Source: Lophium mytilinum
Lineage: Eukaryota
Assembly (NCBI GenBank): GCA_010093605.1
Contig: MU004185.1
Span: forward strand, 1,695,334 to 1,759,333
Direction: 5' to 3'
Length of the DNA: 64,000 nucleotides
Below the pieces are notes generated by a model. It did no database searches. It was not told the DNA's origin and saw nothing but the letters and a program-made list of their open reading frames with translations. The position numbers and the translations under genes were made by a program. Below, piece after piece: positions 45,998 through 52,580 of this stretch. Each line of letters begins with the position of its first letter. Within the stretch, counting starts at the first letter, position 1.

Positions 45998-47755
45998 CTA
46001 TGCCAGGGTAGCCGCCTCGATCTTCTTCCCAAGCTCTTCATCTACTCGCTTGAACATAGCTATGAACTATTAGCAACATGCTCGTACAAGTTCGAATGGG
46101 TCCAACTTACCAAAGGTTTCCTTCTGCACCCCCGGAACGGCTTGCTTCAATGTCGCCGCCACGTTCCCCACAAGATTCTCCTGTTGTCCCTTCTGTCTCC
46201 CCAACACATCCCACAGCCCTTTGGCCTGCACAAAATCTTCATCTGTGACCTCACTTGAGAAGTCGCTGACCTCGCCGACCCACTTCTCATGTGGATTGTC
46301 CCTAGCAATTGTAGCCGTCTTGCGGAAAACAACCTTCTTTTGAGTGGAGCCGACGTAGTTTGGGTCACCGCCGTAGTTAGATCCGAATACCATACCGCCG
46401 TCACGCTGGTAGGGAGAGTAGACAGGGCATTTGGCAGCGTTGGGAGGGAGGGTTTGGTAGTTGACGCCGAGGCGGTAACGGGCCGCGTCTGGGTAGGCGA
46501 ACATGCGGGCCTGGAGCACTAGGAGGAGGAATGTTAGTTTCTCAGTACGTTTGTCTGTAGTAGGTCGAAACTTACTGGGGTCTGCGGATGGCGCTATCCC
46601 GGGGACCATATTAGAAGGTGAAAAGGCGGCTTGTTCGATGTCGCGATAGTAGTTGGATGGGTTTTCATTGAGCGTCAACTTCCCCACTGGTCGGAGCGGA
46701 TAGTCCTTCTGTGGCCAGACCTTCGTCATGTCAAAGATGTTCCAGCGGTATAGCTCCGCATCTGCTGGGTCCATGACCTGCACGAAGAGGGTCCATGACG
46801 GGAAATCTCCATGTGCGATGGAGTCGTGGAGGTCTTGAACATGAGCATCTGGGTTCTCGCCGGCGAGCTTCGTAGCTTCAGACCTCGTCAAGTTCTTGAT
46901 GCCTTGATTCGTCTTGAAGTGGAACTTCACGTATTTGAAAGATCCGTCGTCCTTGACCAGCTTGTAGGTATGTCCGCTGTAAGAGTTTATATTGCGTATT
47001 GAAGCGGGGGTTCCACGATCGCTGAAAAGGATCATGAGTGCATGAATGCCTTCCTGGTTGGCGTTATGAAAGTCCCAGAACATAGACCAGTCGCCGAGGT
47101 GGGTTCGTGGATTTCGCTTGTGCGAGCGGTTGACGGAGGGGAATTTGATGGGATCTCGGATGAAGAACACTGGCTTGGGGCGCAGTCAGTACCGTCCTAG
47201 ACATTCGATCCAACGCATAATTCTTACAATATCATTGAACACAAAGTCCTGGTTTCCTTCTTCAGTGTATATCTTCATCCCCCATCCTCGAACATCTCGG
47301 ACCGTATCTGCCCCACCTGCTTCAGGCCCCACCGTCGATACCCGCAGGAGGCATTTGGATTTCTTGCCAATTGTGCTAAGGAATGCAGCCGAAGTGATAT
47401 CGGTCACGTCGTGCGTGACTTCGAATTCGCCAAATGCGCCAACAGCGCTAGCATGGACCACTCTAGGATGTGTCAGCGAGCTATAGCGAAACAGGTATTT
47501 GATTAAATATGATCCATTGGCGCAGCGTACCGTTCTGGGATTCTCTCACGGGAGAAATGAGCCAAGGTTTCAATTAGTTGCGTATCTTGCAGCAATACGA
47601 GTCCCTTGATGCCTTGTCCGCCGAAGTGTTGGGCTGAAGCTGGATCGGAAATGGGACGCCCTGGTGTCAAGCATTTAGAAATCGCTAAACGAGAACAATT
47701 TGATTGGAGGAGAGGTCGTACCTTCGGCCAATGTATACAAAGGAGCGTTAGTCAT
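45998..47755 (-). CDS. Small-subunit monofunctional heme catalase (6 exons)
   Basis: [32 protein letters not shown] (distal His), [41 protein letters not shown] (proximal Tyr). Ends ...IEAATLA*, with no PTS1. Confidence 0.95.
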
Positions 47756-48081
47756 GGTTGAAATGTTGATAAGCTTTGGAGATTGGGTTCGTCACTTCAA
47801 TAGAAAGATTCGAGCTGGCGGGATAACATAAATATAATAAACGCCAAACACCACAATGACGAAACCTTCCCTGGTATAACTCTTGAAAACTCCCAGGAAA
47901 GCCAATACGCATAACGACAGTCAAGCTGACAGACTCGGGTAGGCATTTCAACGTTGCCACTGGTATGAGAATCAGGGCGGGCTCGCCACTGAAGCCCCGT
48001 GCTGACAATGCATGCCTGTAATGCTTGTGCAGGAAGCAAAGATCCCTCCGGGAATAAGTGGGCTCCTGACGCTTTGAACCC

Positions 48082-48840
48082 CTACTCCATGCCCTCTAGC
48101 AGGTCCAGCAGTCTCTTTAACCGAGTGGCTCTTTTGGCCTGCTCGTCGTCGGGCTCTTCTCTTGCTGCACGGTCGTCCCCGCCCATTAGCAGCGCGACGA
48201 GCGCCCGCAGTCGGTTGCACTCAGTCTTGAGCACGGCATTTGCTGACTCCATGTCCTCGGATTTCTTTGTCAGGTCTTGGACTTTGACTTCGAGTTCCCG
48301 AATTTTCGCTTCTTTCCTTTCTCTGAACGCTCGTTGGCTTTGGCGATTTCGCTCTCGACGCTTCTGTGGCTCTGGTCAGTGCTGGTTCATGTGGGGAGAT
48401 AGTATTTCGCGATCTAGGGGCCAAAAGGGCAGGCAGCTGCGTTACTAACAGTGAGTAACAGCATAAGGCACTTACCTCGGTCACTATCCCGTCAATAGTG
48501 CTAGCGTGTTGCTCGTCTATTCGCTCGGAGGTAGCACTAGTCGTATCCGACATAGTTCGAAATGGGCTCTGCAGTGATTTCCCAAAGGGCTGGGCTTCCG
48601 AACCGCTGCCAGAGAGCCCTTCTGAACTCTCTGATCCTTGTCGTGAAGACAGTGAGGGGTATGGGAGTCCCTAGCCATCGTCTATCAGCAATGAACCGCG
48701 ATCAGGCCATGAATACGTACCTGTGAGGAATTGCTGATAGCCTCGTAAGGATACTGTGAGTGCATGCCGAGGGGTGCTCCACTTGTGGATAAGAAACCGC
48801 TTGAGACTGGCCAGGGGCCTGAGTAATAGGAGGTCATCAT
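48082..48840 (-). CDS. Small bZIP transcription factor with a YAP/AP-1-like basic region (3 exons)
   Basis: Manual splice 48840-48721, ~48671-48476, ~48363-48082 gives KRRERNRQSQRAFRERKEAKIRELEVKVQDLTKKSEDMESANAVL. Not recovered intact by the ORF track. Confidence 0.85.
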
Positions 48841-49554: not shown

Positions 49555-50544
49555 ATCTGGAGAAAAAGAGGTCCGAACGGCCTCCGGTTCCGAATAGCGG
49601 CCGAGATAAGATTGCTCCAAATCTGCCAGGTTCAAAATGTTTCGAGAAAAAAGCCCCTAGTTGACACAGTACAGCCTAGTATTTGCCGATTTGAATCTCG
49701 GAGCTACTCATTATCCCCGGGGGCACACTAGGTTTCCAACCGTTAGTCTGTATCCATAAATAATGCAGGGCTCTAAAACTCCAACGTCGTTGCACACATC
49801 ACCAATTGTTGACTCCTCGGAGCATTCCACGTAGCCCAGGCCCGATATAGGCCTTAGAGAATTGCTTGAATGTAGCTCAGTGCCCGATCATCTCTCATCC
49901 CTGGTGTCAACCACGGCACCACCCGAATCCGAGCCATAACCACCGCGATATTTCCACGTCACATGCCACGCACCCAGACACGCATACCACTGCCTCTTCA
50001 GACACTGACACAGCAGCTGGCGATATTATCTTATGCCTCCCACAGGCTGCTCGCCGTGCGTTGCAGCTGAGTCACCCACTTCCCCAGACGCCTCCCTGTC
50101 ACCCTGCGCCGGCCATCGCCGGACCGGGCTTGTTCTTGGCCTCAAGCCTGCTTAGATATTCGAAGAAATATCACGCCCGATTCTCGCGCACCCTCACCCT
50201 TGCGCAAATCATTCTCCTTCTTCTTGTTCCCCTGCACAGTGCCCGCATGCCGTCACGCTTACGTTCTCTCTTTGAACGTCTCTATGGTTTGCCAACCCTC
50301 CGTGGCTTCACAACGTAAGCTTCATGGGCCCTTGCCGGGCTTCCGATGGACCCATTTCGGTGCCGAGATTGTAGGGAATGTGCTGTGTCTCCAACGGTGG
50401 AATTGATATAAATATGGGTGTGGTCCCGCACGAGGGTAGAGTATCAGAGTATCAGAGAATCTGAGCATCAGACCATCACCGAATAGTATCGAGTCAAAAT
50501 CCAACTTATTTTTCCATACATATTTTCAAGTACCCTTTTCCACA

Positions 50545-52580
50545 ATGGCTGTCGATTCTACTGAATTTGACTTCATTGTCCTGGGCGGTGGAACAGCGGG
50601 AAATGTCGTCGCGGGGCGTCTTGCCGAGAATCCAAACGTTTCAGTCTTGGTGGTTGAGGCTGGTATTTCGTAAGAAGATTCTATCCTCCACTAAATCCCC
50701 TATAGTGTGTTAATGTGCGCGGATAGTAATCCCCAAGAGATTCCCGAGATCACCACTCCCGCACGTGCCTTTGAGCTACGCGGGAGTCAGTATGACTGGT
50801 CGTATAAGACGACTATGATCGCCAGGCCCGACTACGAGCGTGTGGAAAAGCCCAACACCAGAGGTAAAGCCCTTGGTGGTAGCAGTTGTCTCAACTACTA
50901 CACATGGGTGCGAGGGAGCAAGCCTACCTTCGACGATTGGGTTGAGTATGGTGGGCAGGGCTGGAGCTGGGACAACGTCAAGGAGTATTTCGATAAAGTC
51001 AGTATTTATAGCTGATGCTTATGTTTCGAGCATATGACTGACCATAACTCACAGCCTGCGAATTACCATGACGACGACAAGATCTACAGCTCAGACCTCT
51101 CGAAAATCGGCCGAAATGGCCCTCTGAATGTCTCTCATTCCGATCTCGTGCCCGAAGTCAAGCCATTCCGCGATGCCTTGATCAAAGCCTGGGAGAGCAA
51201 AGGCGAAAAGATTAGCGAAGATATTTACTCGGGTGAAGTCAATGGCCTTACTCACTGTGTCAACACCATCTATAAGGGCATTCGCTCCTCTAGCTACTCC
51301 TTCATCCTCGGCAAGTCTAACGTCAGAGTCCTGTCTGGAACTTTCACCAAGAGCATCAACTTCGATGAAACTACTGCCATTGGCGCCACTGTGATAACAC
51401 CAGAAGGCGAGTTGACTTTCAAGGCCAAGAAAGAAGTCATTGTCTCTTCCGGGGTTTTTGAGACCCCTAAACTACTCATGCTCTCTGGTATTGGGCCGGA
51501 AACCGAGCTAAAAGCCCACGGTATCACTCCTATTGTCAAGTCTGCCCAAGTTGGCCAAAACTTGCTCGACCATCCAATCATGCCATATGTTCGACGCCTG
51601 AAGAATGGCTACGGCCTCGATGGCCATATTCTGCGCGCTGGTCCGATGAAAGATGGAGCCATCTCCGCTTACCGCAAGAACAAGGGTGGGCCCATGAGCA
51701 GCGGGCTGCTCGAGCTCGTCGGCTTCCCTCGAATTGACGAGTATCTCGCCAGGAGCAAGGAATATGTAGCCTTCAAGAAAGCCAATGGAGACGTCGATCC
51801 GTTTGGTCCTGCTGGTCAACCGCATTTCGAGATTGACTTTGTGGTAAGTTTAGCTCACCGCAAACCCTTACTACTACCGACGTACTCACTCTTAACAGCC
51901 TATGTTCTCCGATGCATTCCAATGGCACATTCCCACCCCTCCAGAGGGCGACTGGGTCACTGTCATTGTTGATCTTCTCCGCCCGCTTTCCCGAAACGGT
52001 GTAATCAAACTCAATTCGACCGACCCCTTGGAACAACCTTTCATCAACCTCAATTACTTCTCCAACGATCTCGACCTTGTCGCTCTCCGTGAGGGGGTAC
52101 GATTTATCGATGATATTTTGACTACTGGCGAAGGCTTCAAGGACATTGTCGCTGAGGACTACCCGTGGCCGATGCCAAGAGCGTCCGACGAGGCCATGAA
52201 TAAGACGATTCTGGAACGAAGCCAGACCGGATTCCGTGAGTCACCACAGAAATGAGTAAGCACTCGAGAGGAAAGATAGGCGCTAACCTTGTCCAGATCC
52301 CTGTGGATCTTGTCGGTTGTCCAAGGACATTGATACGGGAGTCATCGGCGAGACTCTGAAAGTTCACGGCACGAAGAACCTGAGAGTCATCGATGCCTCA
52401 GTATTCCCCGTCATTCCGGACTGCCGCATCCAAAACGCCGTGTATATGGTTGCCGAAAAGGTACGCAGGAAATCCCTTTTCAATACGGCCCAAATGCTAA
52501 CGGTAATCTAGGGTGCTGATTTGATCAAATCGGAACACAAGGATCTGTACGCAGATTTCAAGTTACCGGCGCTGGTTTAG
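50545..52580 (+). CDS. fod1: Formate oxidase (GMC oxidoreductase, Aspergillus oryzae FOD-type; 6 exons)
   Basis: [110 protein letters not shown]. These match the A. oryzae formate oxidase sequence as I recall it, including Arg in place of the second catalytic His/Asn of other GMC enzymes. Confidence 0.88.

Follow-up and report, generated by a model that had tools for sequence, protein, structure and literature searches.

What keeps a catalase, a bZIP regulator, and a formate oxidase (FOD) side by side in a fungal genome, and do all three belong to the unit that has been conserved? The question arises at positions 45998..52580 of a 64,000-nucleotide stretch of DNA from Lophium mytilinum (assembly GCA_010093605.1, contig MU004185.1, positions 1,695,334 to 1,759,333 of the forward strand), here called the window, in which catalase (−), bZIP (−), and FOD (+) genes follow one another, all intact and spliced. 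A first-pass annotation made from the letters alone had placed the genes in this arrangement, with which our spliced models and the joints in assembled contigs agree; it interpreted them as a self-contained C1 oxidation cluster with its own regulator. We report that conservation extends to the FOD–catalase pair and not to all three genes, and that the bZIP appears to be a recent addition in the Mytilinidiaceae. The pair probably serves as an NAD-independent system for disposing of formate, with matched removal of peroxide.

The FOD gene (50545→52580, + strand) encodes a 584-amino-acid protein of the GMC family in six exons (50545-50669, 50727-50997, 51055-51843, 51899-52235, 52297-52460, and 52512-52580), with a PDCRIQN motif and no internal stop. 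The best solved relatives of exon 3 are structures of the Aspergillus oryzae formate oxidase (3Q9T, 5ZU2, and 5ZU3; E value of 5.5e-95, against 4.6e-18 for the next GMC family), and the other exons tested rank likewise, with FOD first, which confirms the initial assignment to the A. oryzae type. The residues that had been singled out for inspection, R87, H511, and R554, are all present, the last two as H508 and R551, and we take His511 and Arg554 to be the active-site pair of formate oxidase. Together with S94, which is also present, they are invariant in 36 of 36 aligned homologs (picked from 120 listed). According to PMC11236828, R87 and S94 are required for 8-formyl-FAD formation and cofactor maturation, and the residues that line the formate site of the model published there are all kept in the Lophium protein. 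Judged by its sequence, the window GMC enzyme is thus a formate oxidase, with a predicted activity of converting formate and O2 to CO2 and H2O2. This activity is a prediction because the characterized A. oryzae enzyme, while sharing equivalents of R87, S94, H511, and R554, groups with another major subclade, one that is largely intronless (short signature motifs).

Of the 21 GMC matches in the Lophium genome, no other is a close copy of FOD, and no plasmid copies were found at E ≤1e-100. The genome also encodes an NAD-dependent formate dehydrogenase (three exon matches of 52, 242, and 94 bits on contig C15), which likewise takes formate to CO2 but yields NADH where FOD would yield H2O2, and which is unlinked to FOD in this genome. 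Elsewhere in the FOD tree, sequences of Basidiomycota and Mortierellaceae (P0107, P0115, P0116, P0118, and P0120; 61 to 67% identity) are nested among those of ascomycetes, a hint of gene transfer across fungal phyla. Species of Aspergillus (P0279, P0302, and P0251) have more than a single FOD type, one of about 593 amino acids with a type 1 peroxisomal targeting signal (PTS1) and others of about 579 amino acids without it.

The catalase gene (47755→45998, − strand; exons 47755-47722, 47660-47531, 47462-47228, 47173-46576, 46518-46111, and 46059-45998) encodes 488 amino acids without internal stop. The product is a small-subunit monofunctional heme catalase (PF00199) whose best PDB matches are catalases, and it retains H58, N131, and Y341, presumably the distal His, the distal Asn, and the proximal Tyr. 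Further catalase genes are found on contigs C9, C11, and C13, with a catalase-like gene on C24. Neither window enzyme has a signal-like N terminus or a PTS1, as had been stated previously and as inspection of the termini bears out; reading through the FOD stop adds no PTS1, and none of the 120 nearest catalases (of 1904 matches) carries one, by a PTS1 consensus that leaves room for noncanonical or piggyback import.

Linkage of FOD to catalase supports the functional connection proposed earlier and is far more widely conserved than was recognized then. Among the best 120 of 510 FOD matches and 120 of 1904 catalase matches, with at most 15 members per cluster, five named fungal genomes besides Lophium link the two genes. 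In Cirrosporium and Rasamsonia the locus tags of FOD and catalase are consecutive, as are the accessions of the two in Rhizodiscina and Aulographum, while in Mytilinidion they are one gene apart (FOD, KAF2807038; bZIP ortholog, KAF2807037; catalase, KAF2807036). The proposed three-gene unit is therefore seen in Lophium and Mytilinidion only; across fungi it is the enzyme pair that recurs, and the bZIP is rarely included.

Metagenomes yielded 73 FOD loci, called fungal from introns, neighbors, and tree position rather than from labels, and catalase lies just upstream in 20 of them (17 head-to-head and 3 on the same strand). Near-identical loci were merged into 54 groups, and the distant GMC loci L086, L091, and L094 were removed. 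Catalase was found upstream of FOD in 16 of the 26 nonredundant groups with at least 4 kb of upstream flank and downstream in 0 of the 20 groups with at least 4 kb of downstream flank, and the pair is usually arranged head-to-head across a shared region of 0.4 to 2.1 kb. Catalase is the sole widely recurring neighbor (18 groups), the next shared gene being found in 3 groups. As a control for chance, no listed catalase lies closer than 10 kb to any of the other 20 GMC matches of the Lophium genome. No formaldehyde, methanol, oxalate, or formamide gene recurs among FOD neighbors, the exception being one cupin in L104 with a partial, subthreshold oxalate-decarboxylase match. The idea of a self-contained C1 or formaldehyde module loses ground here, given that no formaldehyde or methanol enzyme recurs and that the Lophium genome keeps its NAD-dependent formate dehydrogenase.

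Catalase-linked FODs are scattered across the whole FOD tree. Their partner catalases, placed with FastTree and an outgroup that is not clean, fall into a main clade without PTS1, a clade with PTS1 (L026, L030, and L085), the L042/L045 lineage, and L032; because these lineages are separate, the FOD–catalase link was remade and not only inherited. FOD and catalase distances are correlated (Spearman 0.39 over 21 eukaryotic pairs; 0 of 2000 permutations). PTS1 status agrees in all 20 pairs for which both C termini could be read, 2 having the signal on both enzymes and 18 on neither. The PTS1-positive pairs form one clade in each tree, and the agreement therefore records a single coordinated switch rather than two tests. 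The notion that a PTS1 and a linked catalase are alternatives was rejected, since the PTS1-bearing FODs of L026 and L030 adjoin PTS1-bearing catalases. A PEX11 gene (L026:3746-4246) was observed about 3.3 kb past the PTS1-bearing catalase–FOD pair.

Catalases can use H2O2 to oxidize formate peroxidatively, and in methylotrophic yeasts an H2O2-forming peroxisomal flavin oxidase shares its compartment with catalase. The FOD–catalase pair would follow the same logic, with the differences that its coupling is by gene linkage, that it mostly lacks PTS1, and that the substrate is formate. We propose that FOD, with its 8-formyl-FAD and Arg-based active site, oxidizes formate with O2 to CO2 and H2O2 and needs no NAD+, and that the linked catalase, sharing its compartment (in Lophium most likely the cytosol), breaks down the H2O2 or oxidizes a second formate with it. 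The net effect would be disposal of formate without NAD+ cost or leftover peroxide, alongside the NAD-dependent formate dehydrogenase, and selection on this combination would hold the two genes together.

Bacterial homologs point in the same direction. A scan of 185,579 prokaryotic genomes returned eight FOD loci (L098-L105; 56 to 60% identity), six in mycobacteria and two in Actinomycetota assemblies. All ten positions checked, including the equivalents of R87, S94, H508, and R551, are conserved in the seven intact proteins, the FOD of L099 being broken by an insertion sequence. One or two same-strand catalase genes lie within about 1.7 kb in seven of the eight loci, LysR genes occur in five, and an NAD-dependent formate dehydrogenase (NF005750, over cutoff) occurs in four, immediately after FOD in L100, L101 (split between two frames), and L102; the one linked to FOD in L100 is the sole such enzyme over cutoff in that genome. 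PucR-type genes and insertion sequences were also seen in the surroundings of these loci, and the L100 genome has three catalase genes close together. The bacterial FODs form one clade nested inside the fungal FODs, and monophyly of the eukaryotic sequences was rejected by an approximately unbiased (AU) test (p 0.003; 39 versus 10 rows, with two poor outgroup rows omitted and long outgroup branches). The catalases at these loci constitute a separate lineage. The simplest reading of the trees is that the bacterial FODs were acquired from fungi by transfer and that bacterial catalases were recruited afterward.

Several observations weigh against a conserved formate-disposing pair. The Lophium FOD belongs to a different major subclade from the enzyme whose chemistry is known. 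Of the 26 metagenome groups, 10 have no catalase inside the flank, and one of the 16 with a catalase is L054, whose catalase is partial and is missing from the near-identical L053. In Penicillium IBT 35674x, Pseudogymnoascus, and Claussenomyces the FOD and catalase accessions listed do not adjoin each other, nor do those in the clusters shown for Aspergillus, Paecilomyces, and Fusarium; other paralogs may exist beyond the matches listed. Shared species history would produce a correlation of FOD and catalase distances equally well, and the PTS1 match reflects a single event. L053 and L054 differ by about 3.9 kb holding the partial catalase, suggesting that loss of the partner is ongoing.

The bZIP gene (48840→48082, − strand; Pfam bZIP_1; database protein P0241) has three exons (48840-48721, 48670-48476, and 48363-48082) and encodes 198 amino acids. 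The earlier description of this protein as YAP-like holds for its basic region, and fails for the rest: it has one Cys, no PAP1 or cysteine-rich domain, and no sensor domain, and the PAP1 (Yap1) gene of this genome is on contig C10, PAP1-domain matches being confined to C10 and C20. We take Yap1, Pap1, and NapA to be oxidative-stress bZIPs with catalase targets; the window protein shares with them a Yap-type basic region with Phe, and its gene adjoins a catalase, but in size, cysteine content, and domains it differs. Clear relatives are rare: one search gave three proteins (longer proteins only), and a search of 1.84 billion representatives added one more (E 3e-28), without genomic context. 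Two relatives begin 12 codons farther upstream, at a start codon that the Lophium sequence lacks.

A bZIP lies between both enzymes only in Lophium and Mytilinidion, whose bZIPs are 84% identical, and in the metagenome locus L055, where the order is catalase (−), bZIP (+), FOD (+). The L055 protein is 34% identical to the window bZIP, is encoded in the opposite orientation, and falls in a separate clade, so that orthology of the two is not supported (by a tree of 72 columns only). No bZIP was found in the remaining 15 of the 16 linked groups, although exon-split genes could escape detection. Other regulator genes do stand beside the pair, in L039 and as a gene shared by L029, L041, and L060, with a Pfam match only in the L060 open reading frame (ORF); that query found no counterpart of the shared gene in the Lophium genome.

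The alternative that survives best accepts the enzyme pair and regards the bZIP as a passenger in the intergenic region that regulates other genes, and it is nearly as likely as not. The confinement of the bZIP to one family, its distance from Yap1 and from the L055 protein, and the lack of motif enrichment all favor a passenger. Yap sites upstream of FOD genes numbered 6 of 35 where 5.5 were expected and AP-1 sites numbered 2 where 5.3 were expected, a comparison that is weak for Lophium because most of the promoters scored have no linked bZIP. Two independent bZIP insertions at one position would, however, be unlikely by chance for so small a class of genes, a consideration based on two cases, and Lophium and Mytilinidion have both retained the insertion.

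A dedicated three-gene module, in which the bZIP is a specific activator of both enzymes, is possible but doubtful. Besides the retained trio and the second, unrelated bZIP in L055, it is favored by the finding that bZIPs are the only identifiable genes between both enzymes in the loci examined, by the other regulators that flank the pair in fungi and bacteria, by a contig that joins bZIP and catalase, and by the intergenic DNA, which holds one AP-1-type site at 50068 and several half-matching sites. Against it stand the linked groups in which no bZIP was found, the four named genomes with no gene between the enzymes, the rarity of clear bZIP orthologs, the lack of a sensor domain, the site counts above, and the lack of a canonical Yap site between 48850 and 50545. 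With bZIP sites not enriched upstream of FOD genes, the claim that the cluster has its own regulator remains unproven. A shared promoter motif was likewise rejected: a 7-mer present in 15 of 35 upstream regions against 3.4 expected by crude shuffles fails against real flanking DNA (11 of 48 versus 59 of 494; p 0.03, uncorrected). No 6- to 8-mer upstream of FOD survived correction, save a marginal A/T-rich 6-mer.

It is also improbable that the natural substrate is something other than formate, such as formaldehyde hydrate or a different small aldehyde or acid, with the catalase link reflecting H2O2 production only. The separate subclade of the Lophium FOD would allow such a substrate, as would the first purification of FOD from a formaldehyde-resistant Aspergillus (cited in 10.1101/2025.11.10.687738). 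However, the lining residues of the formate site are all kept, formate dehydrogenase neighbors FOD in four of the eight bacterial loci, and no formaldehyde gene recurs nearby. Less probable still is inherited synteny without functional selection, because flanking genes vary by locus while catalase stays and several unrelated catalase lineages, as well as bacterial catalases, occupy the slot, even though the trees are broadly congruent and linkage is often lost.

Assembled contigs provide further detail on the locus. They come from one public run, taken as RNA by guess; splice joints are present, and the contigs give no expression level, strand, or transcript ends. The joints listed cover 5 of 5 catalase introns, 2 of 2 bZIP introns, and FOD introns 1 to 4. 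Database copies from L. mytilinum exist for FOD (P0001; 100% over exon 3 and of equal length) and catalase (P0245), as for the bZIP. One 3126-nucleotide spliced contig runs from 49472 through the bZIP, across the 326 nucleotides between the bZIP stop and the catalase start (47756..48081), and into the catalase. The bZIP and the catalase may be cotranscribed; the contig may reflect read-through or overlapping untranslated regions and does not imply a single transcript. Upstream of the bZIP, the contig covers 632 nucleotides (48841..49472) containing six ATGs. The short, non-Yap1 bZIP, presumably inserted between the enzymes within the Mytilinidiaceae, faces FOD across a common region whose stretch between the two divergent contig ends (49473..49699) is likely the shared promoter core, although the gap between contigs proves nothing by itself. 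An 11-bp tandem repeat within it (49516-49559), not enriched elsewhere, contains CGG triplets that we assume to resemble Zn2Cys6 sites.

Two minus-strand GT-AG introns, one within FOD exon 3 (51189..51255) and one just 3' of the FOD stop (52635..52694, in a 3374-nucleotide contig from the side of an MmgE/PrpD-family gene), reveal spliced antisense RNA over FOD. This RNA apparently runs in from that gene's side, downstream of FOD, and the longest ATG-started ORF found in it has 105 amino acids. On the other side of the locus, between a kexin gene and the catalase, degenerate tandem repeats (44817-45850; 2 × 121 bp and 4 × ~177 bp) were not adopted as part of the unit, related arrays being short and dispersed on C8, C23, and elsewhere on C5. 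Farther away, the window holds kinase and Ras-like domains in a single frame interrupted by stop codons (26235-28163).

A comprehensive scenario would combine these elements. FOD and catalase would form a portable, NAD-independent, formate-burning cassette that took on new catalases on several occasions, shifted as a unit to the peroxisome in one lineage, and spread from fungi to actinobacteria, there to be reassembled with bacterial catalase, NAD-dependent formate dehydrogenase, and LysR. It would also have captured local regulators more than once; in Lophium, bZIP and catalase would be made on one read-through transcript, the bZIP would control the pair, and spliced antisense RNA would damp FOD. 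Taken as a whole, with all its parts true at once, this scenario is unlikely.

The nearest described fungal gene cluster for C1 detoxification is the ssf formaldehyde-resistance cluster on Starship elements (PMC11623301), which differs in using a glutathione-dependent route and whose main text does not contain the words "catalase," "bZIP," or "GMC." Identity with that cluster was rejected, as none of the ssf gene types recurs near FOD; no glutathione-dependent formaldehyde genes were present in the 38 window ORFs scanned or among the recurring neighbors of FOD. We found no paper on the genomic context or physiological role of FOD, and none of the papers listed by full-text searches (40 of the 63 that mention formate oxidase) was shown there to describe FOD–catalase linkage or a mycobacterial FOD, with the proviso that the pair could figure in cluster catalogs published as supplements or in subscription journals.

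The locus thus appears to consist of known enzymes in a conserved oxidase–catalase pairing, undescribed so far, with an exchangeable slot for a regulator. In the literature that we found, formate oxidase figures as a biocatalyst and in tests for methanol poisoning, a reagent rather than a member of a pathway. Its link to a compartment-matched catalase, and in bacteria to an NAD-dependent formate dehydrogenase as well, suggests that its natural task is to dispose of formate, and the analysis brings out subclades of the family, among them actinobacterial ones that seem to have come from fungi by horizontal transfer. If true, the reading of FOD and catalase as a cassette would provide the first physiological circuit for formate oxidase and the first bacterial members of the family.

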